38,502 nucleotides of DNA from a virus (Duplodnaviria > Caudoviricetes): the IMG/VR virus record IMGVR_UViG_3300022777_000105, positions 1 through 38,502 of that record; one strand, 5' to 3'. Under the pieces are notes generated by a model. It was given only the letters and a program-made list of their open reading frames with translations, had not been told where the DNA came from and did no database searches. Position 1 is the stretch's first letter; each line of letters starts with the position of its first letter. Below are positions 9,145 through 30,067 of the stretch, piece after piece. The translations under genes and the position numbers were made by a program.

Positions 9145-10185
9145 ATGGATACGAACCCCAGTCTGGAGCCCAAGACCAAGGAGTTGTGGGCCGGCATCCG
9201 GTCCACGACGTCCAAGCAGTCGACCATCCAGCGGTACATCACGGAACTCCGGTCACGAGTCAGTGGCATCGTGGCGTTGCAGGCGATGCTCGAACAGTCA
9301 TCGACCGACAGTTTCAGCGCCTACGAGACGGAACTCAAAAGCAAGACCGACGTCCGCGCCGTCAGTGACAGCGACGCCGAGGAAGCCCGCGACATCGTGG
9401 AAAACGAGAGTTCATTCAGTTCCTACAGCGACTACGCGGGCGATGCCGGCAACGGGACTGGCGTCCACAACCAGAGTGACTACGACGCCTATCGGGGCTA
9501 TCTGACGAGCAACGGCGTCGGAAACGTGGATGCCGACGTTCACAACCGGACGATCAAGCGACTCTACACCCCTGGAGATACGTTCATCGACCAGGTGGTC
9601 AACGAGAGCACGAGTTTCGACGAGTTAGAGACGTGGCTGGATAACCAGGGGTTCGCCAGCGAGGACGCCACGGCGTTCCGCGACGAACTCGAAGGCGAGT
9701 TCGCAGACTGGAGTTCCTTCGAGACGTTTCTCGACAACGCCGACAGCATCGAAGCGTTGCTTGATCGGTACGCGCACACCGAGACTGCGACCACGGGCAT
9801 CGAGTACGACGAAGATACCGGGACGCTGTACTTGCGCTACGAGACCGAACTCCGGATGCAACAGTGGCCCAGTGAGAGCGTCGACAACCCCGACGAGACG
9901 GCCAGCATCTCGTTTAGTAACGTGTCAGTCTCCGATACGACACCCGTGGTGGACACGGAGATCACGGTCTCGGCGGATGCCACCAACAGCGGTGGCAGTG
10001 CGGGGACAGCGGGGTCGGTGCTCGTCGTCAACAACGCGACGCGGGACTGGCAGACGGTGGACGTCCCGGCCAACAGCACGCGCACCGTCCGCTATACGGT
10101 GTCCTTCGACAGTGTGGGCGAGTACGACGTCCGCGTGAACGACGCCAGCACAGTAACCGTGACGGCCATCCCGCCGAATATCTGA
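9145..10185 (+). CDS. tail protein with C-terminal CARDB/Ig-like domain
   Basis: ITVSADATNSGGSAG...FDSVGEYDVRVN is CARDB-like. Confidence 0.6.
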   Translation: MDTNPSLEPKTKELWAGIRSTTSKQSTIQRYITELRSRVSGIVALQAMLEQSSTDSFSAYETELKSKTDVRAVSDSDAEEARDIVENESSFSSYSDYAGDAGNGTGVHNQSDYDAYRGYLTSNGVGNVDADVHNRTIKRLYTPGDTFIDQVVNESTSFDELETWLDNQGFASEDATAFRDELEGEFADWSSFETFLDNADSIEALLDRYAHTETATTGIEYDEDTGTLYLRYETELRMQQWPSESVDNPDETASISFSNVSVSDTTPVVDTEITVSADATNSGGSAGTAGSVLVVNNATRDWQTVDVPANSTRTVRYTVSFDSVGEYDVRVNDASTVTVTAIPPNI

Positions 10186-11369
10186 TGACGACCGACAGCA
10201 CCATCCTCGTCAACGGGTCGGAGTTGGCTGTCGGCAGTCCCGTTGAGAACAGCACGGTCTATGCGAACGATACGCTGGTCGATGACGGCGACGACTCAAC
10301 GGAGGTATTTATCAACGACCGCGGCATCGGCGCTGGTGCAGTCATTGACACCGTGTATTTCGGCAGTTTCGACAACGATGTGTATGCAGTCAACCCCAGC
10401 GACGGCTCGCAGCGGTGGTCATATTCAACCGGGGCCGGCATTGAGTCGTCGCCCGCGGTCGCTGATGGCACCGTCTATATCGGGAGCAACGACAACAAAG
10501 TCCACGCGATTGATGACTCGGATGGGACAGAACAATGGACAACGACAACCGGCGGGTCGGTGGTGTCGTCGCCGGCTGTTATTGACGGGACGGTATACGT
10601 CGGCAGCAACGACAACACCGTCTATGCGCTGGCGGCCAGTGACGGGTCCCAAGAGTGGAGTTTTTCGACGGGCAACACCGTTGTCTCGTCGCCGGCAGTG
10701 GTAGACGGCACCGTCTACATCGGAAGCTACGATAATAATGTGTATGCGCTGGCGGCCAGTGACGGGTCCCAAGAGTGGAGTTTTTCGACGGGCGATTTAG
10801 TGCGATCCAGCCCTGCCGTTGTGGATGGGACGGTATACGTCGGCAGCGACGACGGGAACGTGTATGCGCTGGCGGCCAGTGACGGGTCCCAAACGTGGGC
10901 GACCGCGACCGGCGACGACGTGGCGACCCATCCAGCAGTGTCGGGCGGGAGTGTCATCGTCGGTAATAACGGCGGCGATGTCTACTCTCTTGCAGCCAGC
11001 GATGGGTCTCAGGAGTGGACGTTTACAACAGGCGCGATAGCTGTGTTGTCAAACCCGACCGTCGTTGATAGTTCTGTGTTTATCGGCGACCAGGACGGAA
11101 CTATCTACTCTCTTGCAGCCAGCGACGGCTCCGAGGAGTGGAGTGTATCAACGGGCGACACAATCCGGAGTAGTCCGGCCCACATATCCGGCGTGGTCCA
11201 CACCGGCTCAGATGATAGTAGCGTGTACGCCCTGAACACGAGCGACGGCTCTCAAAAATGGACGTTTTCGACGGGCGGGCTTGTGAAATCATCCCCCATC
11301 GGCGGGGCTGATGGATGGGCGTTTACGAACCGACCCGGCCGATTGAATGAAAACGCGGACCCGCTCTAA
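10185..11369 (+). CDS. PQQ/BamB-like beta-propeller virion protein
   Basis: About eight 40-aa repeats SSPAVVDGTVYVGSxDxxVYALxASDGSQEW. Confidence 0.85.
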   Translation: MTTDSTILVNGSELAVGSPVENSTVYANDTLVDDGDDSTEVFINDRGIGAGAVIDTVYFGSFDNDVYAVNPSDGSQRWSYSTGAGIESSPAVADGTVYIGSNDNKVHAIDDSDGTEQWTTTTGGSVVSSPAVIDGTVYVGSNDNTVYALAASDGSQEWSFSTGNTVVSSPAVVDGTVYIGSYDNNVYALAASDGSQEWSFSTGDLVRSSPAVVDGTVYVGSDDGNVYALAASDGSQTWATATGDDVATHPAVSGGSVIVGNNGGDVYSLAASDGSQEWTFTTGAIAVLSNPTVVDSSVFIGDQDGTIYSLAASDGSEEWSVSTGDTIRSSPAHISGVVHTGSDDSSVYALNTSDGSQKWTFSTGGLVKSSPIGGADGWAFTNRPGRLNENADPL

Positions 11370-15389: not shown

Positions 15390-15674
15390 TTAGTCAGTGT
15401 CCGTGTCTACTGATCGACACTCTCTGAGATGTTCAGCCGCAGTGCGGGACTTGATGAACCGATCTCCACAACTGCACTCGTATGACCTACGTAATTCTTC
15501 TACTACATCCAGACCAGCCCCAACATACCGTTTCTCTCCGATTAAGTTGACGTGCTCCTTCTTACCGAGTAGGCGGTCAGGGTCCGCTACATCACCTTGA
15601 TGTTTGAGGACCTTCGTGATAGTGATGATGTGTTCAGTCCCGTCTGAAGACTGACCGGCCGCGCCGTCACGCAT
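15390..15674 (-). CDS. cassette-borne C2H2-like zinc protein (94 aa)
   Basis: MRDGAAGQSSDGTEH...YECSCGDRF...AAEHLRECRSVDTDTD; start lies in the junction repeat. Confidence 0.6.
   Translation of the reverse strand: MRDGAAGQSSDGTEHIITITKVLKHQGDVADPDRLLGKKEHVNLIGEKRYVGAGLDVVEELRRSYECSCGDRFIKSRTAAEHLRECRSVDTDTD
15392..15415 (-). repeat. cassette 1 downstream (R-type) palindromic site
   Basis: Minus strand GATCAGTA-GACACGGA-CACTGACT. Confidence 0.6.
15632..15656 (-). repeat. cassette 1 upstream (L-type) palindromic site
   Basis: Minus strand GGTCAGTC-TTCAGACGG-GACTGAAC. Confidence 0.65.
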
Positions 15675-15885
15675 CGTCCGATCCCTCCCGTGGGTCCCCG
15701 ACACGCGCGCCGTGGCCGCCGAGCACCACCGCCGGATCGACACGACCGTTGTTCCATTCGAGATCGCGCACCTCGGCCCCGACGCAATCGTGGATCGCGC
15801 CGCTCCCGATGAAGTGGACTGCCCGGTCGCCGTCAACGTCGTCGAGAAACGCGCGGAGATCGGCGACGGTTAGCGGCTCAGGCAT
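15667..15885 (-). CDS. hypothetical protein (72 aa, ends EGSDDA)
   Basis: MPEPLTVADLRAFLDD...; GGAGG RBS in junction repeat. Confidence 0.65.
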   Translation of the reverse strand: MPEPLTVADLRAFLDDVDGDRAVHFIGSGAIHDCVGAEVRDLEWNNGRVDPAVVLGGHGARVGDPREGSDDA

Positions 15886-16077
15886 CGTCCGATCCCTCCG
15901 CGTGGTCGACCCTGAACGATACGTCGACGTCTGTCGACCTCCAGTCGACGGCATCAAATTCTGTGTCGAAGATCCCAACGACCGCGTCCAGTTCTTCAAT
16001 CACGTCCAGTATCTCGCCGACAGTCTCATACCGTTCCTCGTGTGGCGTTTCAGACTCAGGCATCGTCCGATCCCTCC
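15671..16077 (-). repeat. three identical 18-bp gene-junction repeats GGAGGGATCGGACGATGC
   Basis: Plus-strand GCATCGTCCGATCCCTCC at 15671-15688, 15882-15899 and 16060-16077. Confidence 0.9.
15878..16063 (-). CDS. hypothetical acidic protein (61 aa, ends EGSDDA)
   Basis: MPESETPHEERYE...; GGAGG RBS in junction repeat. Confidence 0.65.
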   Translation of the reverse strand: MPESETPHEERYETVGEILDVIEELDAVVGIFDTEFDAVDWRSTDVDVSFRVDHAEGSDDA

Positions 16078-16544
16078 AGCACCCGCGCAACGTCTTCGAC
16101 GGCGGTTCGGCCGGGCACATCATCGGGGAGTTCGGCAAGCGCACGAGCGGCCGCCTGGCGCGCGTCTGCGACGACGTCTGGATCGACGCCGTCCGCCGCT
16201 GCGAGTTCGTCACGGCAGTCTTCGAGCGCAGCCTGGAGATCGTCGCGTTCGTCGCGTAGCTCGTCGAGCTGCTCGCGGAGTGTGGCGACGTCGTCTGTGT
16301 CGGCGGCGTCCCCGCGCGGGTCGTTGCGGAGTTCGTACACGCCAGTTTCATCAAGGTTCTCCAGGTGGTCGTGTTCTTCGAGCCGGCGGAGGCGCTGATT
16401 GATGTAGCCCGCGCTGGGGACGTCGTCAGCGTCGCGGACCTTCTGCAACCGCCCCCGGAGGAGCTTTGGTGTTGAGCGATTCCGCGCAAGTTCGTCAAGC
16501 AACCACTCATCGAGGTCGTTCAATTGCCGTGGTTCCAAGCTCAT
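16056..16544 (-). CDS. winged-HTH repressor (phiH1 repressor-like) with coiled-coil tail
   Basis: LNDLDEWLLDEL...STPKLL...YINQRLRRLEEHDHLENL..GVYEL; divergent from the early operon. Confidence 0.65.
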   Translation of the reverse strand: MSLEPRQLNDLDEWLLDELARNRSTPKLLRGRLQKVRDADDVPSAGYINQRLRRLEEHDHLENLDETGVYELRNDPRGDAADTDDVATLREQLDELRDERDDLQAALEDCRDELAAADGVDPDVVADARQAAARALAELPDDVPGRTAVEDVARVLEGSDDA

Positions 16545-16569
16545 CAGTGGGTGTGTGTTGCGTGGCACG

Positions 16570-16670
16570 GGTGTTAGTTGTACCCATTAGTATAATAAAT
16601 TTGTGCCACTAACTTGTTCACCGAGTTAGGATACCTAACATTTATATACTATGCACCCGTATGTATAGAT
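16570..16670. promoter_or_regulatory. divergent promoter/operator region
   Basis: AT-rich; rightward TTTATATA 16641-16648, leftward TATA (rc of 16591-16600), palindrome GTTAGG-ATA-CCTAAC 16625-16639. Confidence 0.65.
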
Positions 16671-16743
16671 AGGAAGCGCGGGACGCCGGGAAAATCCGGC
16701 CGGTGTTTCAGGCACCGACCGCGCTCCTCGGAGTTGAGAAGCA

Positions 16744-16917
16744 ATGGCGACTACGCAATCCACGACTGAAACGGTTTCGGAACCGAGTATCGAACGCACC
16801 TACGGCACGAACGCCTACGGCGACCGCTACGCCTACCACGTCTGTACGGGCTGTGACGTCGAGGCCGGCGCGCGCTGGCAGGTTCGGGTCGAGTGTACCT
16901 GCGGTGGTCAGGCATGA
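16744..16917 (+). CDS. 57-aa Cys-rich microprotein
   Basis: MATTQSTT...HVCTGC...ECTCGGQA; first gene after promoter, ATGA-coupled to next. Confidence 0.55.
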   Translation: MATTQSTTETVSEPSIERTYGTNAYGDRYAYHVCTGCDVEAGARWQVRVECTCGGQA

Positions 16918-17030
16918 GCAAATGGACGCGCGACGCCGACGAGCTGGAGCGCGAGATCGCGCGGGCGCTCATCATTCAGGAGTACCACGACGACGAACAG
17001 GCGACCGACCACATCGGGCGGGACTGGTAA
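16914..17030 (+). CDS. 38-aa hypothetical protein
   Basis: MSKWTRDADELEREIARALIIQEYHDDEQATDHIGRDW. Confidence 0.5.
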   Translation: MSKWTRDADELEREIARALIIQEYHDDEQATDHIGRDW

Positions 17031-17032
17031 CA

Positions 17033-17191
17033 ATGACTTATCAAGCAGACTGCAAGGACTGCGGGTACACGGCGGAGTTCGCACACGAATCGAGCGCAGA
17101 GCGCGCGCAGTATCAGCACGAGGGGCAGACGGCCCACGAGGTCGCTGTCGACGAAGTGACCGACGACTCGACGGGGGTGCAGGACCTGTGA
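17033..17191 (+). CDS. 52-aa C2H2-like zinc microprotein
   Basis: CKDCG...HEGQTAH. Confidence 0.6.
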   Translation: MTYQADCKDCGYTAEFAHESSAERAQYQHEGQTAHEVAVDEVTDDSTGVQDL

Positions 17192-17376
17192 CGGGCGTTG
17201 CGACGACGTTCGACGCAGTACTGTCCTACGGCGACGACTGCCCGGTCTGTGGTCGAGCGGTCAAGAGTACCGTCGAAGGTGGCAACGGGACCAGAGCATA
17301 CAACAGCGAGTGTTCGCAGTTCGACACCGATAACGCTCGCGTGCGGTACATCTTCCACCAAGAGGGTCCGAAATGA
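17188..17376 (+). CDS. CPxCG zinc-finger microprotein
   Basis: CPVCG; overlapping start/stop on both sides. Confidence 0.55.
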   Translation: MTGVATTFDAVLSYGDDCPVCGRAVKSTVEGGNGTRAYNSECSQFDTDNARVRYIFHQEGPK

Positions 17377-17594
17377 CGGACGCCACGCACCACATCAACG
17401 AGTCGGCGGACAAGATCACGGTCAAAACGAAAGTCACCAGGGGCGAGGGTACGCGCGACCAGGACAAGCTCGACGTCAAGGTAAAGGGCGACGACCCCGA
17501 CGACGTCGTCGCGCGGTTGAACGCAGTGCTGTCAAACCTGGAGGACACGGCCGACGACCTGCGGGCGATGCAGCCCGGTGATGACGATGAGTGA
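17373..17594 (+). CDS. small halovirus-type protein
   Basis: KTKVTRGEGTRDQDKLDVKVKG followed by a helix. Confidence 0.6.
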   Translation: MTDATHHINESADKITVKTKVTRGEGTRDQDKLDVKVKGDDPDDVVARLNAVLSNLEDTADDLRAMQPGDDDE

Positions 17595-18192
17595 GTGGAC
17601 CGTCGTGGGCGAGAAGCCGACCGGCGAGACGGTCGAACAGACGGCCGGCTCCCGAGCCGAGGCCGAAGAAATGCAGGCCAACGCCGAAGGCGTGGGGCTG
17701 ACCGACGTCGAGATCATCCCGCCGAGTGAGACCGACGGCGGCAACCCCACGGCGGACGTGGTCGAAGTGGACGAGGTCGAGACGCCTGCAGATGCCGCCG
17801 ACGCAGCCGAGGCCCAGCTCGACGAGCGGTCGGTCGCCGAGGATCCCCTGAACTGGGTCCCCGGCGAGTTCGTCGACGAGATCGACGGGACGCAGGCGAT
17901 CAACCGCAAGGGGTTCGAGGTCCTGTCGCACTTCTACGACGTCGACATCGAAACGGAGATCGTGGTGCCGCCGGAGGAGACCGGCCACGAGTACTGCCGG
18001 GCGACCGCCACGGCGACCACGCCGGACGGGCGGGAGTGCGTGGCCCACGGCTCGGCCCACGTTGACCGTGACGACGACTCGTTCCTGCTGCTGGAGATGG
18101 CTGACACGCGCGCCCGGAAGCGGGCGTTGAGTATCGCCACGGGCGTTGGTGCTGTGGCTGTCGAAGAGCTAAAGAATGAGGTGGGTAACTGA
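17587..18192 (+). CDS. putative Rad52/Erf-like single-strand annealing protein
   Basis: INRKGFEVL, beta strands CRATATATTPDGRECVAHGSAH, helix EMADTRARKRALS. Confidence 0.55.
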   Translation: MSEWTVVGEKPTGETVEQTAGSRAEAEEMQANAEGVGLTDVEIIPPSETDGGNPTADVVEVDEVETPADAADAAEAQLDERSVAEDPLNWVPGEFVDEIDGTQAINRKGFEVLSHFYDVDIETEIVVPPEETGHEYCRATATATTPDGRECVAHGSAHVDRDDDSFLLLEMADTRARKRALSIATGVGAVAVEELKNEVGN

Positions 18193-18449
18193 TGTCCGAA
18201 GTCGTCGCGCTCTCGCAGTACTACGACGCCGCCGAGACGTTCGAGCAGCTCCCCGGCGTCCGCGCGGTGGACGTCATCGACGACGACCCGCGGCTTGACC
18301 GCCCGTGCATCGAACTCGTGATCGGACCCGCCTTCGAGCGGGTGCCCCCTCGGGTGCATGGCGTGATCCGCGACCACGACATGGGGACGCGGCCGGACCT
18401 CTCGGGTGCCCAGGGCCGGCCCCGCCACTGGATCTTGGTGGTGGTCTGA
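18192..18449 (+). CDS. hypothetical protein
   Basis: 85 aa, coupled to upstream gene. Confidence 0.55.
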   Translation: MSEVVALSQYYDAAETFEQLPGVRAVDVIDDDPRLDRPCIELVIGPAFERVPPRVHGVIRDHDMGTRPDLSGAQGRPRHWILVVV

Positions 18450-18494
18450 TGCCTGGCGCTGGCAAGCGCGGGAATGATACGACTGGCGATGGGA

Positions 18495-18524
18495 GTGGTC
18501 AGTATGAGTGACGGTACTGACCAC
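18495..18524 (+). repeat. cassette 2 L-type site, perfect 10-bp inverted repeat
   Basis: GTGGTCAGTA-TGAGTGACGG-TACTGACCAC. Confidence 0.75.
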
Positions 18525-18555
18525 ATCTCAGAAAGTTGTGTTGTGGGTGAATATG

Positions 18556-18570
18556 GGAAAGATTTAAGTG
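18556..18570 (+). promoter_or_regulatory. BRE/TATA promoter for leaderless 18593 gene
   Basis: GGAAAGATTTAAGTG about 25 bp upstream of the ATG. Confidence 0.6.
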
Positions 18571-18592
18571 AGTATGGGTACAAGTGTGTAGT

Positions 18593-18949
18593 ATGGCACA
18601 GAACACTGCCATCGAGACGGAATCGGGAAGCCCAATTGAGAGCGGTATTGATCGGACGTGGGACCACTACGCCTACGCCGATGACGGCGAGTACGCGATG
18701 GTCGTCGGCGTCGGCCGCGCGGAGGACCGCGACATGGAGGACGGCCTTGAAAACGGCTGGGCCGTCGAGTACGCCGTTTACGTCTGCGAGGCGAGCCTTG
18801 TCGACAAGCTCAAAGGTCCGTCGACGCGCCGGTTCGAGCCGCGGCCGAACAACCTCACGGACGCCGCGAAGCAGATCCTCGAACAGCTCGCCGAGGAGGA
18901 CGGCCGCGACCCCATCGAGGCGGCAGAGGACTACTGGAGCAACGAATGA
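18593..18949 (+). CDS. hypothetical protein (cassette 2, gene 1)
   Basis: MAQNTAIETE..., 118 aa, acidic. Confidence 0.65.
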   Translation: MAQNTAIETESGSPIESGIDRTWDHYAYADDGEYAMVVGVGRAEDRDMEDGLENGWAVEYAVYVCEASLVDKLKGPSTRRFEPRPNNLTDAAKQILEQLAEEDGRDPIEAAEDYWSNE

Positions 18950-19074
18950 AGGTCGAAGTCAGCGCGAAGGACATCGAGGAGAAGAAAGCGGACGACCGCG
19001 GCCGCGTGACGATCGGCGCAGAGTACGCAGACAAGACCGTGACCGTCGCGGTGCTCGACGTCGAAGACGAGTAG
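18946..19074 (+). CDS. 42-aa AbrB/DUF2080-like DNA-binding protein (cassette 2, gene 2)
   Basis: MKVEVSAKDIEEKKADDRGRVTIGAEYADKTVTVAVL; followed by TCTTTT. Confidence 0.65.
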   Translation: MKVEVSAKDIEEKKADDRGRVTIGAEYADKTVTVAVLDVEDE

Positions 19075-19095
19075 CTGTCTTTTCGCCGCTCAATC

Positions 19096-19120
19096 GTTCA
19101 CTACAAACGGATACTGACCA
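19096..19120 (+). repeat. cassette 2 R-type site
   Basis: GTTCACTA-CAAACGGA-TACTGACCA; the right arm TACTGACCA is identical to that of the L site. Confidence 0.7.
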
Positions 19121-19131
19121 GGGGCCCACCG

Positions 19132-19341
19132 ATGAGTAACGGCCACGCAGAGACGGGCGTCCGCAGCGCCGTCGACCCCGACGTCCACGCACTCATCGTC
19201 CAGCGGCCGGACAACCAGCCCGACTATCTCGCCTGCCCGACGGAGGAGTGTGCCGCGTACGTGAAGATCGACGCCGACCCGTCGACGCCGGGCTGGACCG
19301 AGCTGGATCACGATCCCGACTGTCCCTACCGGACGGACTAA
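19132..19341 (+). CDS. small Cys/His protein
   Basis: CPTEEC...HDPDC, 69 aa. Confidence 0.6.
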   Translation: MSNGHAETGVRSAVDPDVHALIVQRPDNQPDYLACPTEECAAYVKIDADPSTPGWTELDHDPDCPYRTD

Positions 19342-19474
19342 CTCTTTTGCGGCCCCGTCGTCGCTGGCTGGCACGAACCCGGCAACCCGGAAGCACCCCA
19401 GCCAGACTCAAACCACACCCACTGCATACTGACGAGTATGCGACACGACCCCAGGCGCACGATAGTCCACTCAG

Positions 19475-19657
19475 TCAGCCATCGGCGTCGCCAGCCTGAC
19501 CAACATCCTCGTGAAACGGCGTCTTGGTTTTCCGATTGCAGCGCGGACACGTCGCGTTCCACAACTCGCCTGAGTACATCCAGACGTACCCGCAGTTCTG
19601 ACATTCTACCTCGGTGTCATCATCTCCATCGGCGTCTGAGTTGCACGTCACACTCAT
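19475..19657 (-). CDS. CxxC-W-Y-CPxC zinc-finger microprotein (leftward)
   Basis: VECQNCGYVWMYSGELWNATCPRCNRKT. Confidence 0.7.
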   Translation of the reverse strand: MSVTCNSDADGDDDTEVECQNCGYVWMYSGELWNATCPRCNRKTKTPFHEDVGQAGDADG

Positions 19658-19778
19658 ATAAACTACTACTACGACCAGTGATTAAAGCATTGGGTCGCGC
19701 TGAACAGAACTTTTATAGTGGTGGTGGTAGTGGTATGCAAATGTGGGACTTGGTAGTAGTAGTAACAGAGACCACGAC
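19658..19778. promoter_or_regulatory. divergent promoters with GTA/GTG triplet operators
   Basis: ATTAAA 19681-19686 (leftward TATA), TTTTATA 19711-19717 (rightward); ACTACTACTAC 19662-19672, GTAGTAGTAGT 19753-19763, TAGTGGTGGTGGTAGTGGTA 19716-19735. Confidence 0.65.
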
Positions 19779-19919
19779 ATGACAGACGTTACCTGCACCC
19801 ACTGCGACTATCGGTGGGAGTACGGCGGCGACCTCCAGTACGCGACCTGTCCGAGCTGTCGCAGCAAGACCGCAGTGGACAGGGGCGACGGTTCGTCAGA
19901 GGTACCGGCAGAGAACTAA
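19779..19919 (+). CDS. CxxC-W-Y-CPxC zinc-finger microprotein (rightward paralogue)
   Basis: MTDVTCTHCDYRWEYGGDLQYATCPSCRSKTAV..., 46 aa; not in ORF track. Confidence 0.7.
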   Translation: MTDVTCTHCDYRWEYGGDLQYATCPSCRSKTAVDRGDGSSEVPAEN

Positions 19920-19920
19920 G

Positions 19921-19976
19921 CCACTGTCGCGCGGGATCGTGCAAGGCCCAACCTGTCCGATCCCGCGCGGTGGTGG
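19921..19976 (+). other. strong GC hairpin
   Basis: CGCGCGGGATCG 19928-19939 pairs perfectly with CGATCCCGCGCG 19958-19969. Confidence 0.7.
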
Positions 19977-19993
19977 ATCCACGACCACACCGA

Positions 19994-21322
19994 ATGATGT
20001 CAAATCGTGAATCCGGCGGCGACTACAACGCCGCCAGTGAAAGGCGTATCGACAACGAAGATGAGAGTCCGCCAGCAGAGCCCGACGAGACCAGCGGGTC
20101 TGCTGCGTCCGACAAGACGGTCGCCGGCCTTACCTCTCTTTGGGAGACCGACGCCCCGCAGGCACAGCGGGTCCTCCGGCATCTCCTCAAAGAGACCACC
20201 GAGACGACGTTCTACAAGTCCGCGGACGTCGCCGAGGAGCTGGACATCACCACCAAGCAGGCCGCCCACGCGCTGCGGGCGATCGCCGATGCCGACACCC
20301 GGCACATCTCGGTCGAGCAGTGGACCAACACAACGACGCCGACGACCTGGCGCGTGACGCTGCCCGACCCCGGCAGCCCGGAGCGCCGCCTGACCGAGGC
20401 CGCCAAGCAGCTCACGCTGGCGAGCGCGGACATCGACGACGCCGAGGCGGTGGCCGAACTCGCGGGCGCGCTCGGCGCGATCGAGCGTGCGGAGAGCGCA
20501 CTGGCGGATGAGGAGGTGGTCACCGACGGCGGCTGGGAAGACGTCGGCACGCTGCCACCGGAGAAAGAGCCGGAGTATGTCGGCGCGCACAGTGGCGCCG
20601 AGAGTGTTGAGTGTCGCAACTGGCTTGAGCCCAACGCCGACGGGCAGTGTGGCGCTCCGGCCACCCACACCGTCGTCATGTACCACGGCGAACTCAGCGA
20701 GATTCCGATGTGTAACGGCTGTGGCGAGCCCGAGGATGTCGACGCCTGGGACCGGGAGTGGTCCGCCGAGGAACCCGATGCTGTCACCGACGGCGGCGAG
20801 CAGTTTTACGTCGTCGACGAGGATCGCCGTCGGATCGTCGCCGGCCCGTTCCCCGACCGCGTCACAGCACAGGCCGACGAGCGAGCGCGCCAGCCCGCCC
20901 ACATCGTCGTCTCCGGTCGGGCGCTGGACCTCGCCCGGCAGGACGGCCCGATCCGCGACGAGACAGGCGACGTCGACGTGGTGACCGACGGCGGGACGAT
21001 CCCGGTCTGTCCGGCGTGCGATCGGACCAACATCTGCCCGTCGGCCCGCAGCCAGGGCTGGTACTGCAAGGACTGCAAGGAGACATTCACCGACCCACCG
21101 CGGCGCGAGAGTCGCCAGGAAACCGGGCTGCCGAGTGCCGAGGCCCAGGCGCTCGACGACATGGACCCCGAGGAGTTCGATGAGCTGCTGACCGATGGTG
21201 GGCAGATCGTCACGGTCAAAACCGCCGGCGACGACTTCGCGCGGTGCATAACGTGTGGTGCCACTGGGGAGACGCCCGACACCGTCGACCACCACGACAG
21301 CTGCTCAGGGGGCGAGGACTGA
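19994..21322 (+). CDS. modular wHTH/zinc-finger protein with TDGG linkers (442 aa)
   Basis: N-terminal wHTH (FYKSADVAEELDITTKQAAHALRAI...TWRV), three Cys modules and four TDGG motifs. Confidence 0.7.
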   Translation: MMSNRESGGDYNAASERRIDNEDESPPAEPDETSGSAASDKTVAGLTSLWETDAPQAQRVLRHLLKETTETTFYKSADVAEELDITTKQAAHALRAIADADTRHISVEQWTNTTTPTTWRVTLPDPGSPERRLTEAAKQLTLASADIDDAEAVAELAGALGAIERAESALADEEVVTDGGWEDVGTLPPEKEPEYVGAHSGAESVECRNWLEPNADGQCGAPATHTVVMYHGELSEIPMCNGCGEPEDVDAWDREWSAEEPDAVTDGGEQFYVVDEDRRRIVAGPFPDRVTAQADERARQPAHIVVSGRALDLARQDGPIRDETGDVDVVTDGGTIPVCPACDRTNICPSARSQGWYCKDCKETFTDPPRRESRQETGLPSAEAQALDDMDPEEFDELLTDGGQIVTVKTAGDDFARCITCGATGETPDTVDHHDSCSGGED

Positions 21323-21444
21323 TGCCGGGCACTTGCCAGGAGTGTCAGTCTCCGTGTCGCGGCGGGCTGTGCAAGCAGTGCGAACTGGAGTTGGCCCACG
21401 GGACGCCCGAGATGCCCGACAGTGCGAGGGATGCCGATGACTGA
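21322..21444 (+). CDS. 40-aa zinc-finger microprotein
   Basis: CQECQSPCRGGLCKQC. Confidence 0.55.
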   Translation: MPGTCQECQSPCRGGLCKQCELELAHGTPEMPDSARDADD

Positions 21445-21604
21445 CAGACTCGTTGCGTGTGACGACTGCGGCGCTGTTTTCGTCCGCAGGAACGTTCCGA
21501 CAGCAGCGTGTCCGACGTGTGAACGGACAACAAAAGACCGCAAGCAGGTTCCCAAGCTCGGGTGGGTGCGAAAGTGGTGGTCGGAGGTGAGTGCCCGTGC
21601 CTGA
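21437..21604 (+). CDS. 55-aa zinc-finger microprotein
   Basis: CDDCG...CPTC. Confidence 0.55.
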   Translation: MTDRLVACDDCGAVFVRRNVPTAACPTCERTTKDRKQVPKLGWVRKWWSEVSARA

Positions 21605-21767
21605 GTGCGACTGCGGCACCGAGATCACCACCAAGAACGCGGCGGGCCACTACCGCGACCGCTGTGCCGAGTGCATCGACGACGCCGCGCCTGATGTCGG
21701 CCGCGAACGCCGGGATCCTGCAACGTGGCTCGCCGAGGAGGACGCGCCCGAGGGGTGGTCAGAGTGA
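21597..21767 (+). CDS. 56-aa zinc-finger microprotein
   Basis: GTG start; ECDCG...RCAEC; GTGA-coupled to next gene. Confidence 0.5.
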   Translation: MPECDCGTEITTKNAAGHYRDRCAECIDDAAPDVGRERRDPATWLAEEDAPEGWSE

Positions 21768-22300
21768 GCGACGACGCCAGCGTCGACGACGGCCTGCTCG
21801 ACGACCTGCAGACGGAGTTTCGCGAACGCCACCACAAGCGCCGCCACCGCGACGACTACGACCAGGCCGACCAGGCGATCACCAGCGGCGAACTCGCGGA
21901 CACGTACGGTATCGAAGACGCCGAGGGCAACCCAAAGACCCGCGAGGCGATCAAGATCCTCAAACGCGAGCGCGGGCTGCCGATCGTCGGGCAGAACAAC
22001 GGCTACTACATCCCGGTGACGGGCGGCCCGATCGAGGACTACATCGAACGCCTCGAAGGTCGGATCCAGGGCATCCGCGAGAACCAGGACCTGATGCGGC
22101 AGAACTGGCAGTCGTGGCAACAGCGCGAGCGCGCCTACAGCGCCGGCGCGGCCGACGTCGAGGCGACGGTCGTGGATCACAGTGCCGAGTGCGACGGCGG
22201 TGATCGGGAGCTGACCGACGCGGAGCGCGAGCGCGTCGAGAACGATCCCGTCCTGACCGTGGAGGACGTCCTCCAGCGCCGCGGAGGGGGGTCGGCATGA
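21764..22300 (+). CDS. winged-HTH protein with coiled coil
   Basis: ITSGELADTYGI...TREAIKILKRERGLPIVGQNNGYYI. Confidence 0.6.
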   Translation: MSDDASVDDGLLDDLQTEFRERHHKRRHRDDYDQADQAITSGELADTYGIEDAEGNPKTREAIKILKRERGLPIVGQNNGYYIPVTGGPIEDYIERLEGRIQGIRENQDLMRQNWQSWQQRERAYSAGAADVEATVVDHSAECDGGDRELTDAERERVENDPVLTVEDVLQRRGGGSA

Positions 22301-22584
22301 GCGGGCAGTCCACAGACGGTACCGAGCGATTTGAGTATCTCGTCATTGCCGACTGCGGACACTGCGGTCAGGAACTCAAGTACGTTGAGGAGTTCGACGA
22401 ACCCGCCCCACTTGACTACGGCGTCGAAATAAAGTGGGGTCGCTGTCCGTACTGCCAAGGGCCTATGGCCCCCGCTTGGTGGGATGTGAAATCGGAGTAC
22501 GAAATCGAGCGTGTGAAACCCACTCAAGAGCGGTCACTACAACCGGGAACTGACCGATCTGGAGGGGCCGACGATGCAGCGTGA
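22297..22584 (+). CDS. cassette-borne zinc-finger protein (cassette 3)
   Basis: MSGQSTDGTER...CGHCG...CPYC...RSLQPGTDRSGG. Confidence 0.65.
   Translation: MSGQSTDGTERFEYLVIADCGHCGQELKYVEEFDEPAPLDYGVEIKWGRCPYCQGPMAPAWWDVKSEYEIERVKPTQERSLQPGTDRSGGADDAA
22303..22327 (+). repeat. cassette 3 L-type site
   Basis: GGGCAGTC-CACAGACGG-TACCGAGC. Confidence 0.6.
22531..22556 (+). repeat. cassette 3 R-type site
   Basis: CGGTCACTA-CAACCGGG-AACTGACCG. Confidence 0.7.
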
Positions 22585-22720
22585 GCGCTACCGTCGCGAC
22601 GAGGCCCGCGCCGCCCGCCGCCACGGCCAGCGCGTCGATCAGGGCGCGTGCCCCCACCGGAGTCCCGGCGACCTCCCCTGCTCGCTCGACTGCTTCGCGG
22701 GGGGTGAGTCCCATGCCTGA
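22574..22720 (+). CDS. 48-aa Cys-containing microprotein
   Basis: MQRERYRR...CPHR...PCSLDC; GGAGG upstream. Confidence 0.45.
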   Translation: MQRERYRRDEARAARRHGQRVDQGACPHRSPGDLPCSLDCFAGGESHA

Positions 22721-22820
22721 GCTGACGCCCGCCCGCGTCGGCATCGCCACGCTCACACTCGGGCTGCTCGGCGGGCTCGGTCTCGCAACGCTGGTCATGA
22801 TGGGGGTGTGTCTGCCATGA
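22713..22820 (+). CDS. 35-aa single-TM peptide
   Basis: MPELTPARVGIATLTLGLLGGLGLATLVMMGVCLP. Confidence 0.5.
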   Translation: MPELTPARVGIATLTLGLLGGLGLATLVMMGVCLP

Positions 22821-22951
22821 GCACGCTCGACACAGACCCCGAAGACCTGACCGATGACGAACTGCTCGAACGGCTTGCCGCAGAAGATCCCGAGGAGATT
22901 CCGCTGGCGACCCACTGCCAGCGCGTTATTCAGGAGGGTGACGAATCATGA
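22817..22951 (+). CDS. 44-aa acidic microprotein
   Basis: MSTLDTDPEDLTDDELLERLAAE...; converges on the integrase 3' end. Confidence 0.45.
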   Translation: MSTLDTDPEDLTDDELLERLAAEDPEEIPLATHCQRVIQEGDES

Positions 22952-24195
22952 TTGTCGTCGAGGAACCGCTCACGGAACTCGGCGTCCGATTTGAACCGGC
23001 GGCGGAACTCGGCGACGAGGTCCTCGTTGGTGATGTCGGCGTTGGTGGCGGACTCGAAGGTATCGTCTTCGATCTCGTCGACGCGGTCGGCGGCCTGCTG
23101 GCTGAGTGGGGCTGCACAGCCAGGGCAGAACCGCGCGCCGTCACGCAGCGGCGTCCGACACTGGTTGCACTGGGTGAGTTCCGGCGACTTCTCGCCATCG
23201 TCGTCGACGATGCCGTGATCGGCGAAAATCTCGTCGTTCATCTCCTCGTCGGAGACCATCGAGTACCGCGAGAGGACGCGACTGTCCTCGACCAGCGTCG
23301 CCCGGTGTTTGATCTTCTGCTCGCTGGCGCCCTGGCGGATCCACTCGGAGATGGCCGTCCCGCGGAACAGATGCGCGTGGATGCGCTCGCTGTCGATGCC
23401 CGCCGCCTCGGCGATCTTCGTGACGCGCCGGCTGGCGTACTGCTGGCGGAGGGCGGCCGTGCTGTCGGCGTCCCAGCGCCGCGTCTTGTGAAAGAGTGCG
23501 ACGTCGTCCTCGCTGGGCCGGGGATGGACGTCGAGCCAGTTGGCGACGTGGCCCCGACTCCAGGTCAGCGGGCGCTCGCCGTGGGCGCCCTTGACGTTGG
23601 CCTCCTCGTTGATCGTGATGGTGGCCTTCGGCGGCTCCAGGTCGATATCGCCGACGCACAGCGAGAGGACGGCGCCGATCCGGAGGCCGGTATCCCGGAG
23701 GACGGCGATCATCGCCTTGTCGCGGGCGGCCGCATCGAACTCCGCACAGGCCGCAAGCATGGCGTCCAGCTCCGCCTCGGTGATCTCGTCGGCGGGGTCG
23801 TGCTTGTTCTGGATCGGCGCACCGATGGTGATGTCCTCGGCGAAGGGGGAGTTCTGCCAGTCGAAGAACTTCTTGATGCCCTTCTTGTAGCCGCGGATGG
23901 TCGACTCGGCGAGGCCGTGCTCGTCTTCGAGCAGCAGTTCCAGAGCGTTGACGTCGTCGATGGTCTCGAACTCGGTGAGGGGCATCGTGGAGCGTTCGGC
24001 ACACAGTCGGATGCGGTTGAGGTGGCCGACGATCGTCCCCAGCGACTCGATATCCGCGTCGTTGGTCCGGAGGTAGGCGATCCACCGTTTGATGGCCGTG
24101 CGGTCGGCCTCGGTCAGGCCGTCGCTGTCTTCGAGGAGTTGCTTCTGGTTGTCGAACTTCGTGGCGTAGCCTTGGACGTCGTTGACGTCGGCCAT
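22930..24195 (-). CDS. int: tyrosine integrase with C-terminal zinc ribbon (SNJ2-like haloarchaeal type), 421 aa
   Basis: DTGLRIGA (R), NVKG (K), HAHLFRG (HxxR), SRYS (Y), CNQC..CPGC; start placed at MADVNDV. Confidence 0.9.
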   Translation of the reverse strand: MADVNDVQGYATKFDNQKQLLEDSDGLTEADRTAIKRWIAYLRTNDADIESLGTIVGHLNRIRLCAERSTMPLTEFETIDDVNALELLLEDEHGLAESTIRGYKKGIKKFFDWQNSPFAEDITIGAPIQNKHDPADEITEAELDAMLAACAEFDAAARDKAMIAVLRDTGLRIGAVLSLCVGDIDLEPPKATITINEEANVKGAHGERPLTWSRGHVANWLDVHPRPSEDDVALFHKTRRWDADSTAALRQQYASRRVTKIAEAAGIDSERIHAHLFRGTAISEWIRQGASEQKIKHRATLVEDSRVLSRYSMVSDEEMNDEIFADHGIVDDDGEKSPELTQCNQCRTPLRDGARFCPGCAAPLSQQAADRVDEIEDDTFESATNADITNEDLVAEFRRRFKSDAEFRERFLDDNHDSSPS

Positions 24196-24425
24196 ATGCC
24201 CCAGAATGAGTGGTGGGATTATAGACTTGCTCCTCGTAACCCAGCCAGGGCTACTAATTATTCTGACATAACCCAACCCACCGAGAGTGGCCACCTTGCC
24301 GATACTTGTCGCGGTGCAACCCCTGGGGTTCGGGTGGAGACATCGGCCTCGCGCGGTGGTGGGCGTGTCGGTGATCGTGGAGTTACACCACATGACGCGA
24401 TAGGAAGTCCGGGGGTGGTGGCCGG

Positions 24426-24746
24426 ATGAGAGTGTCGCCCGTCGACGACGCGGCGATCCTGCACGCAATCGACGACGCGATCGACGCCGGCGACGTCTGC
24501 ATCAACGGGCAGCCGTCGGCACGCGACATCCGACAGCATCTGCCCCCCAGCAAGCGCCTCACGCCCCGCCGGATCTCGGATCGGCTGTCCGACCTCGAAG
24601 ACCAGGGCGAGGTCGAGTGCTCGCGCACGACGCGGATCAACGGGCATGGCGACGTCAAGACCGCGGTGCGCGTCGACGGGAGCGAGGTGGGCGACGCCCC
24701 GGCGTGGGACCGCCACTCGCTACGGAACAGGGGCGGTCAGGCATGA
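24426..24746 (+). CDS. winged-HTH protein
   Basis: PSARDIRQHL...TPRRISDRLSDLEDQGEVE. Confidence 0.6.
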   Translation: MRVSPVDDAAILHAIDDAIDAGDVCINGQPSARDIRQHLPPSKRLTPRRISDRLSDLEDQGEVECSRTTRINGHGDVKTAVRVDGSEVGDAPAWDRHSLRNRGGQA

Positions 24747-24892
24747 TCCGGCCCGACCTCGGTCGGTGCCCGGCCTGCGGGACGATCGTCCACTGCGACG
24801 GCGTCGTCGAGTGTCCGTCGCCGGCCTGTCGCTACCAGCCCGACGCCGTGCAAGCGCTGCGTGCGGCTGGCGAGGAGGTGCTGCAGTCGTGA
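24743..24892 (+). CDS. CPxCG microprotein
   Basis: MIRPDLGRCPACG...ECPSPAC. Confidence 0.55.
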   Translation: MIRPDLGRCPACGTIVHCDGVVECPSPACRYQPDAVQALRAAGEEVLQS

Positions 24893-24894
24893 GT

Positions 24895-24920
24895 GACGAG
24901 TCTGGGGGCGGGACTGAGCG
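24895..24920 (+). repeat. cassette 4 L-type site
   Basis: GACGAGTC-TGGGGGCGG-GACTGAGCG (reads ESGGGTER). Confidence 0.5.
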
Positions 24921-25001
24921 AACCCCAACCACAGGGATTAGTATAGGTCAAACCAATAGGTTTAATAGGCTGGGTCTATATTGTCTAAGTGTAGAAGGAA
25001 G

Positions 25002-25517
25002 ATGTCCCAAGAAATCACCGTCACGAAAGTCGAAGACCACTACGAAATGCAGTTCGACGGCGGCGACGCCTACCCTGTTCCGACGAACGCCATCGACAAG
25101 CTCGACGACGACCTCACGCCCGAGGAGGTCGGCGAGTCGGTCACGTTCACGGGCGACTACGGCGGTCACAAGCACGCCAAGACCTTCGACGTTGAGGAAG
25201 TCATTGAGACGCCCGGCGACGACGAAGACGACAGCGAAGGGGGGGCCGAAGACGGCACGGGCAGAGACGCAGAGCTGACTCCCGAGCATGTCGAGGAGGT
25301 TGGCTACCACACTGCCGCGGGCCAGGCCCAGCAGATCGAGGCGCAGCGGTTGTTTGACCTCGGAGAGAAGAGAGATTTCCAGCGCGACGCTTCCGAAGAG
25401 GGCTTCGATTACGTCTGCCCCCATTGCGGCGGCGACGCGAACAACTCGACGGAGAAGCCGTACTGCTCGAAGGATTGCGCCCAGACCGATCTCGCTGACG
25501 TGGAGGTTCAGCCATGA
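25002..25517 (+). CDS. hypothetical acidic protein with C-terminal CPHCG..YCSKDC (cassette 4, gene 1)
   Basis: 171 aa; upstream TTTAATAG TATA at 24961-24968. Confidence 0.65.
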   Translation: MSQEITVTKVEDHYEMQFDGGDAYPVPTNAIDKLDDDLTPEEVGESVTFTGDYGGHKHAKTFDVEEVIETPGDDEDDSEGGAEDGTGRDAELTPEHVEEVGYHTAAGQAQQIEAQRLFDLGEKRDFQRDASEEGFDYVCPHCGGDANNSTEKPYCSKDCAQTDLADVEVQP

Positions 25518-25936
25518 GCCACTCGACGAACCATCCGCGCGAGTTCGTCGGTTGCCCGGACTGTGGGGCCAGCGCGCCCGACGCCTGGGAGAAGAAGCGG
25601 TCGCTTCCGCAGGTCGGCCAGACCTACGAGTGCGAGAACTGCGGACGCGAGGTCTACATCTACGACGCGGGCGATCCTGGCGAGACGACCAGGCAGTGGC
25701 GACCCGTCACGGACAGCATGGCGACGAACCTGCAGTTCTTCGACGAGGTCGGCGACTGGCCCGACAGCAAGCTCTCAGACCTGTACAAGCAGGGCCTGGA
25801 GCGTATGGAGGCTATCGACTACCGGATTGTCGAAGCCGAGGGCCTGTCGCAAAACGAGTGGGCGCGCCGGACAGAACGGTCGCAACCAACCATCTCCGAG
25901 AACGTTGCGAAAGCAAAGCAGAAACTCGGCGAGTAA
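25514..25936 (+). CDS. zinc-finger plus HTH regulator (cassette 4, gene 2)
   Basis: CPDCG..CENCG and GLSQNEWARRTERSQPTISENVAKA; followed by CTTCTTTT. Confidence 0.7.
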   Translation: MSHSTNHPREFVGCPDCGASAPDAWEKKRSLPQVGQTYECENCGREVYIYDAGDPGETTRQWRPVTDSMATNLQFFDEVGDWPDSKLSDLYKQGLERMEAIDYRIVEAEGLSQNEWARRTERSQPTISENVAKAKQKLGE

Positions 25937-25968
25937 CCTTCTTTTCAGGTCGGTCGGGGCGAACTGCC

Positions 25969-25994
25969 CGCGCCGTAGGACCGGACGGCGACCA
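25969..25994 (+). repeat. degenerate cassette 4 R-type site
   Basis: CGCGCCGTA-GGACCGGA-CGGCGACCA (reads RAVGPDGDQSGG, compare RSLQPGTDRSGG). Confidence 0.35.
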
Positions 25995-27458: not shown

Positions 27459-29093
27459 CTATCCGTAGTCCACCTTGAGGACCTTCTTGATGAAGTTCCC
27501 AAGTGTGACGGCCCCTCGGTCCTGCGGTCGGTGGTTCGGGAACTCCTCTCTGAGGAACGTCCGCGTGAGCATCCAGCCGTTGTACAGGAGTGTGCTGAGC
27601 CAGAACAAGAAGACGCGGACGCCGTGGTGACGCGACCCGGTACGCGCCATCAGCTTGGTCTTCTTGTCGGCGTAGGAGTTCTCAACACGCCAGCGAAGCT
27701 TGTGGCGTCGGATGATTTCCTCGGCCCCATCCTCGTAGTTGAGTGTTCCGTACGGGCGTCGCGCCTTCCAGAAGATGCTCGGAACCTCATCGAGGTCGAG
27801 CACGTCGGGGTCGTCGCCACCAGTGAAGTCGTCAAGCGACTGTTGTTTGCTGCTGATGACTGTGTCGAAGTCCTTCTTCGTAGCGTTGTTCCAGTCGGGC
27901 TCCGCCACGACGCGCACCTTCTCAGTGAGGTTGTGCTTCGAGGAGGTCAGTGGATAGGGCTCATAGTCGTCGTACCGACCATCCATGGCAGCGAGCGCCC
28001 CCTTGAGTTCCTCAGCACGACGCTTCAGCCGAACCGAGGGGACGATGTCTCGGTCCTTGCAGAACTTCACGATACGGGCCGACGCGAAGTCCGAGTCCAG
28101 GCGGAGCGTCCCGATGGAGCAGTACTGTTCGGCCTGCTCGACGAGACGCGTCACGAGGTCGTACGGCCTGAGGTCTTGCGTGTAGGGCTCGACGGCGGCC
28201 GCGACATCCTTGTCGTGCTCTTCGTCGTGGACAACGAGCGTGGCGAAGTGGAAGCCGTAGGTCGTTCCGTTCTTCGGCTCTCCCTGCCGGTGTCCGTCCG
28301 GCGGGCTGTCCGTGGTCGGCCAGATCGGGATGACCGTGATGTCAACGTAGGCGTCCAGGTCGCCCTGGAGCATCCCGGCACCGGTCGCCGCGTTCAAGAT
28401 GCGGCTGTTGATGCGCTGGAACTCCTCGTGCCAACCGTTGCCGTCGCGCTGCTTGACGGCGTTGAACGCGGTCTTGATGGCGAAGTCGTGGTTGTTCTCG
28501 TCGATGACGTTCGCCGGAGCGTTGCCCTCCTGGCAGGCTTCGAGGAACGGGTCGAGGATGGAACCAGCACCGTATTTCGTGTTGCTGGCCCGGTTGAAGT
28601 CGGTCTCCTCCAGCATAATCGCCTTCACGTGACGGATCTTCTCGTCAATTGCCTCTTCGGGAATCTCCGGCAGCGGCTCGGACCTGCTGTCCGTACTCGG
28701 CGTTTCGAGGTGCGGGCCGAAGAGGTCGTCCGAGAACTTCTGATGGAGGCGGTCGCGGATGTAGTCGGCGTGGCTTTCGAAGAAGGGTTCCATCCCGGTG
28801 AATTGCTCGCGCATGGAGTAGGAGAACGTCGAGTGGTCGGGCACGTCCTCAAGGCCGAGGATATCTCGGATGGACGGGAATCGGTCGAGGTGTTGCTCCA
28901 GCTCGAAATACGAGCGCCCGGTCAGGAGGCGGTAAATGTGCGCCTGCGCGACGGCTTGGGGATTCTCGTCCCCACCACCGTCAAATCCGTCTTCGAGGTC
29001 GTGGCTGAGCGGCCCGGGCTCGTCGGCAATCACCTGCGCGATAGCCTGCTCGCCAAGAAGCGGGTCGAGCGTCGCGCGGGTGGCGGCAGTCAC
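27459..29093 (-). mobile_element. IS4-superfamily (ISH3-like) DDE transposase, 544 aa
   Basis: VDITVIP (D), LRLDSDF (D), HKLRWRVENSYADKK (YREK-like E), N-terminal VPDHSTFS; element ends not resolved. Confidence 0.8.
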
Positions 29094-29179: not shown

Positions 29180-30067
29180 ATGACAAACAGCATTCAGAGC
29201 ATTGAGTCAGGTAAAGCAGTGATGAACTATCCAGGGGCAAAAGCCCGTCTCGCACCCTGGATTATCGACCATCTGCCGGAGCACAACACGTACGTCGAGG
29301 TGTTCGGTGGCTCCGCAGCGGTCTTAGTCCACAAGCCGGAGTCCATCAACGAGGTCTACAACGACATCGACGACGACCTGGTAGAGTTCTTCGAGGTGCT
29401 GCGGGACCGGCGCGACGAGCTGCTCGACTGGCTCCAGCACACGCCATACTCCCGGACACTATACAACCGCTTCGCGGACGCCTACCACGAGGGTGACCGT
29501 GCCGACGACCCTGTGGTTCGTGCTGGCCGCTTCTGGTATCTCGTTCAAGCAGGTTTCAACGGAGACCTCACGAAGCGGAATTCGTTCAGCACATCGACAT
29601 CGGCGCGCGGTTATCCGTGTGATTCGCAGGCCCGGAACTACCACCGCTCCCGTGAGCGTCTTGACGCCTTCGCGGAGCGATTCCAGGCTGTCACTATCGA
29701 ATGCCTCGACTGGCGAGAGGTTATCGACCGTTACGACTCCGCGACAACTGCGTTCTACGTCGATCCGCCGTATCCAGCAGTCCGTTCGGAGGGGTACTAT
29801 CCCCACCACGACCTTGACCACGCCGCGCTCGTTGAGCGATTGACCGAGATCGAAGGTGAGGCCGTCATCTCTTACGGAGAACTACCGGACTGCCCGGATT
29901 CGTGGGAACTCCGCGAGCGAACGGTCACGTCTACGCTGTCACGAGCGAACGGCGAGGACAAGGATTGCCCCGAGAGATTGCTGCTGACCTTCGACCCGGA
30001 CGAGATGCCGTTGTTCCAGTCTGCTCAGCAGCAGACTCTCCAGGCGCTAACGGAGGGCGAAAGATGA
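29180..30067 (+). CDS. Dam-family N6-adenine DNA methyltransferase
   Basis: YPGAK, YVEVFGGSA, EVYNDID, FYVDPPY motifs. Confidence 0.9.
   Translation: MTNSIQSIESGKAVMNYPGAKARLAPWIIDHLPEHNTYVEVFGGSAAVLVHKPESINEVYNDIDDDLVEFFEVLRDRRDELLDWLQHTPYSRTLYNRFADAYHEGDRADDPVVRAGRFWYLVQAGFNGDLTKRNSFSTSTSARGYPCDSQARNYHRSRERLDAFAERFQAVTIECLDWREVIDRYDSATTAFYVDPPYPAVRSEGYYPHHDLDHAALVERLTEIEGEAVISYGELPDCPDSWELRERTVTSTLSRANGEDKDCPERLLLTFDPDEMPLFQSAQQQTLQALTEGER

Follow-up and report, generated by a model that had tools for sequence, protein, structure and literature searches.

Accessory genes of a haloarchaeal virus are bracketed by pairs of short, unlike dyad sites, here called L (upstream) and R (downstream). 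We found these in the IMG/VR record IMGVR_UViG_3300022777_000105, a stretch of 38,502 nt (the window) that holds the record complete, has direct terminal repeats at its ends, and shows DNA and protein matches to haloarchaeal viruses. L and R are paired above chance, one slot holds mostly unrelated cargo in different genomes, homology breaks off within the sites, and a reading frame stays open from L to R. The sites are real, widespread and apparently undescribed. An initial annotation of the window had placed eight of them around four accessory blocks as a candidate cassette-exchange system, and all eight lie where it put them, with L and R co-oriented in each block. The cassettes occupy an accessory region with tail genes on one side and packaging genes on the other, as follows (bits are scores of the refined matrices described below).

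15390..15674, minus strand: cassette 1 open reading frame (ORF), about 94 amino acids, a small zinc-finger-like protein (CxC/C-H) judging from its translation, in frame through L1 and R1
15392..15415, minus strand: R1 site, 10-nt spacer, closes cassette 1, 30.3 bits
15632..15656, minus strand: L1 site, 11-nt spacer, 31.9 bits
18495..18524, plus strand: L2 site, perfect 10-bp arms, 12-nt spacer holding a start codon, under the threshold of the 11-nt matrix
18593..19074, plus strand: cassette 2 cargo, small genes of 118 and 42 amino acids after an AT-rich promoter-like stretch
19096..19119, plus strand: R2 site, 37.1 bits
22297..22584, plus strand: cassette 3 ORF, a CxxC protein of 95 amino acids, in frame through L3 and R3
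22303..22327, plus strand: L3 site, ATG two codons before, 26.9 bits
22532..22555, plus strand: R3 site, 34.4 bits, with a Shine-Dalgarno-like sequence and then the next start downstream
22930..24195, minus strand: tyrosine integrase (PF00589) with a C-terminal zinc ribbon
24895..24919, plus strand: L4 site, 21.4 bits
25002..25936, plus strand: cassette 4 cargo, genes of 171 and 140 amino acids with their own promoter-like stretch and a T-run
25970..25993, plus strand: R4 site, degenerate, below 13 bits, weakly supported

L is a dyad of 27 bp and R one of 26 bp, and their four arms represent one half-site, CGDTCAGTA. The spacer from TCAGT to ACTGA measures 11 nt in L (12 nt in L2) and 10 nt in R. 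From non-redundant matches of at least 18 bits, the consensus is CGRHCAST-C-Y-W-CG-RR-CGR-T-ACTGAMCG for L (62 matches) and CGDTCAST-A-S-A-S-A-CGG-R-W-ACTGAHCG for R (61 matches). Information is confined to these 27 and 26 nt, with almost none left toward the cargo at either site; L comes after a start codon or the motif DGG, and R sits ahead of a ribosome-site-like stretch and the next start. Removal by hand of 9 L and 11 R chance-looking matches left 53 L and 50 R for the refined matrices, whose training set includes the window's own sites and whose background is 15 matches of at least 13 bits in 413 kb of other haloarchaeal loci. Of the eight sites, L1, R1, R2, L3, R3 and L4 score 21-37 bits, but L2, with its odd spacer, and the barely recognizable R4 both stay below 13 bits. 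The perfect arms of L2 were confirmed, as was the stretch common to both ends of cassette 2 (TACTGACCA). A pattern drawn up post hoc from the sites has 5 matches in the window, and 200 dinucleotide shuffles gave none.

The scan of haloviral and haloarchaeal DNA that the initial annotation had called for showed that L/R pairs recur in the IMG/VR viruses G002 and G403, the proviruses G195, G071, G050, G060 and G369, metagenome contigs, a Natronorubrum plasmid provirus and the plasmid pHTUR02. Paired, co-oriented sites are common to tailed haloviruses and SNJ2-like pleolipoviruses, which are unrelated virus groups. Among 14 cultured viruses scanned whole or in part, a pair was seen in SNJ2 only (where L and an incomplete R flank the end of gp24), with none above background in the whole genomes of HRTV-4, HRTV-29, BJ1, HFTV1, HSTV-1, CGphi46, SNJ1 and phiCh1 or in the scanned parts of phiH1, ChaoS9, HRTV-DL1, HCTV-2 and HHTV-1. 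For a test of pairing, the L matrix was built from the window and G002 only, 22 R sites were found by R patterns, and search windows under 300 nt were excluded. Thirteen of 19 R sites had an L of at least 10 bits on their own strand in the 1.5 kb upstream, compared with 1 of 19 for the other strand upstream and 4 of 20 and 2 of 20 downstream. The sites also form tandem arrays of small same-strand ORFs in which R is followed by L within 39-61 nt; that of G002 has six L-gene units, five of them ending in an R of at least 13 bits. Two broader scans were of little use: a codon-degenerate search of all GTDB contigs returned 120 loci, nearly all chance (one haloarchaeon among 80 titled), and a loose dyad pattern in 401 Halobacteria genomes (132 matched) gave mostly noise and served for leads only. 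The Natronorubrum daqingense plasmid unnamed3 (L407, 8598-18634) carries at least 11 L/R matches in three arrays, together with two oppositely oriented copies, 90% identical, of a two-gene block, and the pHTUR02 megaplasmid (L353, 1263-1780) holds two cargos, single in other viruses, in tandem between L, R, a half-L and R.

One slot of SNJ2-like proviruses could be sampled in depth. Its upstream gene was found in 401 genomes, and 70 of the best matches together with SNJ2 gave 71 loci, chosen by this gene alone, with sites called by a matrix made from sites outside the slot. At the expected offset L was present in 29 loci, R in 24 and both in 19, with 10 loci holding L only and 5 R only. The cargo is 129-823 bp long and mostly unrelated, also in the loci with both sites, so that the expectation of different cargo between the same flanks was borne out. 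Cargo came in two types, a small ORF of virus type that is joined in frame with L and R, and an AT-rich antisense unit with its own start, its stop codon often touching the L inner arm. In empty alleles the flanking genes are joined directly and both sites are absent.

The borders of homology coincide with the sites. Of 311 pairs of loci compared upstream, 186 lose flank homology at L positions 22-31; of 41 compared downstream, 27 regain it at R positions -7 to +4, the pairs not being independent. The loss falls on the L inner arm and the return on the R inner arm. Conversely, the same cargo occurs in other slots (L144/L210, L196/L353, and two copies in one plasmid provirus). Homology of cargo shared between slots begins at L position 7, 8 or 18, and for another shared cargo it extends through the inner half of R. 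An IMG/VR search with the integrase and one flanking gene gave no close relative of the window, and because of this the window's own four slots stand outside the comparison. A contig of depth 8, from a run that is possibly the source sample, follows the window as far as 15402, within R1, and picks it up again at 15634, within L1, a joint that would fit, weakly, different cargo between the same flanks at cassette 1.

As to where cargo comes from, homologs of a YHS-domain cargo lie in ordinary neighborhoods of halocyanin- and UspA-like genes (named from translations) without paired sites, and the cellular ones have a half-site look-alike at the place of the R inner arm in three of three cases. 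Near-identical cellular donors, sought in 61, 61, 81 and 91 genomes, yielded only two cassette-type copies and seven gene-level homologs. A TACTG at the L end of one cargo homolog proved to be the end of a repeated insertion-sequence-like stretch and not an L arm. A homolog of the first gene of cassette 4 had no L upstream.

The codons within the sites support that L and R are DNA-level signals. In the slot, with the L arm located by its DGG anchor (37 of 71 loci) and no matrix used, ACT accounts for 14 of 19 threonine codons, compared with 5% of threonine codons in the genes of the window and SNJ2 and 8 of 46 at a control threonine position of the same gene; these counts are not independent, since slot loci share ancestry. 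Substitutes at this position (ATT, AAT, AGT, TCT) preserve the third base. Among matrix-picked R sites, 19 of 21 serine codons are TCA, a codon that makes up 13% otherwise. The initial annotation had taken the sites for DNA-level signals, to be abandoned if synonymous positions varied freely, and its view is supported.

It had also placed the sites of cassette 2 outside real coding frames, which is correct insofar as the protein-like genes (118 and 42 amino acids) lie in other frames; the L2-R2 frame is nevertheless open over 211 codons, and its stop overlaps the next start codon. The last unit of G002 has an open L-R frame like that of cassette 2. For 17 hand-picked cargos whose protein-like gene lies in another frame, the L frame is open to R in 15, the other frames in 4 of 34, and the L-to-R length is a multiple of three in 13; the frame stays open even through antisense cargo. 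In translational coupling the next gene needs a ribosome that stops over its start. We infer that the open frame is kept by selection for translation that ends over the next start codon.

How is the interior replaced? Our results favor, tentatively and with less than even confidence, a swap by two crossovers inside L and R, likely carried out by a host-encoded tyrosine-type recombinase of relaxed specificity. Replacement with both sites kept is the option that remains, because hybrid sites, a common overlap, an attC fold, covariation, a dif-like site and a common viral recombinase were not found. A protein-recognized site is preferred because the half-site is sharp, is repeated four times and is common to different virus groups. 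A protein would bind the half-site, and exchange would join L with L-like and R with R-like DNA, replacing the interior with no excision to a single site. Such a recombinase would have to tolerate unlike spacers and poor partner sites, and genes of cellular origin could come in through sequences resembling the half-site, of which the ends of haloarchaeal genes hold many. Consistent with part of the earlier proposal, that a recombinase inserts and swaps cassettes, interiors are swapped and the same cargo appears in different slots; insertion and excision of the integrase type do not fit. A wider reading, possible but less likely than not, is a dedicated site-specific system that is host-encoded and serves the tailed viruses, pleolipoviruses and plasmid proviruses of haloarchaea alike; it would take up whole small transcription units from cells and exchange viral genes between two unlike sites, as a natural form of cassette exchange, the survivors being filtered for an open frame.

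Several predictions of conventional site-specific recombination failed. The initial annotation expected empty alleles with a single hybrid site; none of the 71 slot alleles contained a convincing one, and 2.69 Mb of fetched loci gave 8 empty-type and 8 circle-type hybrids, all unconvincing, compared with 70 L and 69 R matches. Since spacers differ between L and R within cassettes, there is no identical overlap of the att type. For a transposon with terminal inverted repeats or a miniature inverted-repeat transposable element, no adjacent target duplication was seen by eye, and whole sites are common to the flanks and do not travel with the cargo. As enzymes, the viral Int and the viral annealing protein can be set aside as sole agents, neither being common to the site-bearing elements; window Int and SNJ2 Int share only 29% identity over 80 amino acids. 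A 223-amino-acid tyrosine recombinase beside an L..R array was likewise rejected, as its 30 loci in 28 of 151 genomes do not consistently adjoin sites, and in one it is itself cargo. A loose motif (TATTCAGCAG ... ACTGA) lies 30-60 nt past the stop of these recombinase genes in one clade (L357-L376) and could be that enzyme's own site. A pdif-like host Xer site found no backing: the strict dyad was present in 52 of the 101 Halobacteria genomes, its spacer lengths scattered over 6-14 nt, with no dif-like site common to the chromosomes among the matches listed; a more divergent chromosomal dif-like site is possible.

The recombinase reading should be interpreted with caution, as a number of observations weigh against it. 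No enzyme is common to the site-bearing elements: at least four recombinase families are represented, and some elements showed none. Each of window Int, SNJ2-type Int, BJ1-type Int and the 223-amino-acid recombinase is confined to part of the elements, and G002 showed none of these four. The spacers of L and R are unlike in length and sequence, the outer arms stand at unequal distance from the common CGG, unlike classical core sites, and start-codon context often stands in for the L outer arm. Covariation between arms was not seen, and complementarity at paired positions holds for no more than 23 of 61 R sites and 19 of 62 L sites. Neither site was called in 37 of the 71 slot alleles, and codon bias inside one slot may come from shared ancestry; the same codons are seen again in unrelated slots. 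One cargo is joined to the flank through a 9-nt CGAGGACGG match where R is missing, and a duplicated block begins in L and ends at a ribosome-site/ATG linker. No R was seen upstream of ten homologs of the gene that follows R4. Finally, the joint at cassette 1 is one contig of 80% likeness, with 37 letters on its short side and flanks only, and such joints often arise from other organisms or repeats.

Many of these points suit a rival that follows close behind, and that we regard as a serious though not the leading possibility: recombination at short homology, by strand annealing or microhomology repair, between portable linkers (L, R, DGG, ribosome-site/ATG), with no dedicated recombinase and with the linkers spreading through the easier swapping of genes that bear them. 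It would accommodate junctions at other linkers, unlike spacers, the lack of hybrid sites and of a common recombinase, the resemblance of the half-site to common gene ends and the chromosomal dyads counted above; PeSL cassettes, as far as the available text of PMC2839356 describes them, recombine between repeats. It explains less well the sharp information limit of 26-27 bp, the half-site occurring four times and the symmetric tolerance, and the common homology is often shorter than 15 nt and mismatched. Four viruses that lack site pairs carry the viral annealing-protein homolog found in the window at 17587-18192, and the other site-bearing elements showed no sign of it.

A role as operators, bound by a DNA-binding regulator where genes start and end, with cargo replaced by any means and borders kept sharp by selection for the operators, seems improbable. 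Mycobacteriophage stoperators are comparable regulator-bound sites, and dyad symmetry, orientation with transcription, placement at gene starts and ends and repetition at each array gene agree with such a role; the same consensus recurs in unrelated virus groups, however, cargo that has moved shows its breakpoints within the sites, and over half the alleles of one slot lack both sites. Still less credible, and largely refuted, is a single attC-like folded site made of R, ribosome site and L in integron-like arrays. The tandem L-gene-R arrays with their short R-to-L distances, and spacers that differ by one base, suggested it, but on neither strand did seven R-L junctions fold more stably than their shuffles (z -1.7 to +1.7), covariation and circle or empty hybrids were missing, and neither a recombinase family nor an IntI was seen tied to arrays, with no IntI-aimed profile search made. 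For conserved peptides (N-terminal ...GTER, C-terminal RSLQTGTDR) it can be said that each site keeps to a single reading frame and that several of the variable positions fall on third codon bases. The codon test refutes them as the chief constraint: rare codons dominate and amino-acid changes keep the third base; moreover, the frame often reads antisense nonsense between the motifs.

Profile searches identified in the window a capsid-like protein, a portal, the tyrosine integrase, a DDE transposase and a D12 methyltransferase; Pfam gave no match for the cassette 1 ORF or the cassette 2 cargo. The DDE transposase (27459-29093, minus strand) is inserted just upstream of the D12 adenine methyltransferase (29180-30067), and D12 methyltransferases are L..R cargo in G002 and G050. 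An ORF at 19994-21322 has four TDGG motifs between small zinc-finger-like modules; elsewhere it stands ahead of many L and R sites, and it is a possible third linker. Another repeated linker is a ribosome-site/ATG stretch (GGAGGGATCGGACGATGC) found before three consecutive genes (15667-15690, 15878-15900 and 16056-16079, minus strand). The 127-nt terminal repeat contains an L-like match of 14.8 bits (97-121; 38472-38496, minus strand) with no partner seen, which may be chance. Among the tail genes, 10185-11369 encodes a PQQ-type beta-propeller with eight 120-nt repeats.

These sites give mosaic accessory regions of haloarchaeal viruses named, fixed DNA positions, and they bear on gene flow between virus groups and from cells to viruses. 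How unrelated DNA lands at identical positions in haloarchaea, a question raised in the available part of PMC3119063, becomes testable with SNJ2 and Natrinema J7, which are cultured and have genetics. If an enzyme is found, it could become a new cassette-exchange tool for halophiles. The initial annotation knew of no such description for haloviruses, and full-text literature searches gave none, in a coverage that lacks most subscription papers and all supplements.

The comparisons that follow rest on partial texts of the sources cited. The dif site has an 11-6-11 layout (two 11-nt arms, 6-nt spacer; PMC8371274), whereas L and R have spacers of 11 and 10 nt and arms of 7-8 bp, differ from each other and lie in a coding frame. 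PMC13532300 reports that its haloarchaeal plasmids hold no known Xer site in a consistent manner. Integron arrays, archaeal ones included (10.1101/2022.02.06.479319), likewise hold small unrelated ORFs in tandem with a recurring site between them; L/R lacks the attC fold, and an IntI was not seen. The word 'Halo' is absent from the main text of that paper. In SNJ2 the att site is a 14-bp direct repeat in a tRNA gene (PMC5861418, a paper whose main text never uses 'inverted repeat'), and the L and R of this virus are at other places in the genome. Haloarchaeal palindrome-associated transposable elements (PATEs) and IS605-type ends (PMC3119063) share palindromes near both ends and no target duplication, but L/R remain with the flanks while the interior changes; the deletion-coupled insertions of Haloquadratum walsbyi in the same source are chromosomal, reach up to 100 kb and have no flanking site named, both comparisons being by description. 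PeSL cassettes of T4-type phages (PMC2839356) come nearer, with accessory genes inserted, deleted and replaced at short repeated elements, although the PeSL is a single promoter-plus-terminator element that forms mini-circles and L/R are two unlike, translated sites that bracket the cargo, with no stable hairpin across the junctions and no match in Rfam. In the pdif modules of Acinetobacter plasmids (PMC6449649, PMC7399989), too, a pair of dyad sites flanks accessory genes that are moved between replicons and occur in different contexts, and a host recombinase is proposed. The L/R system falls outside the dif, integron and att classes, and in its working it resembles pdif modules or PeSL shuffling.

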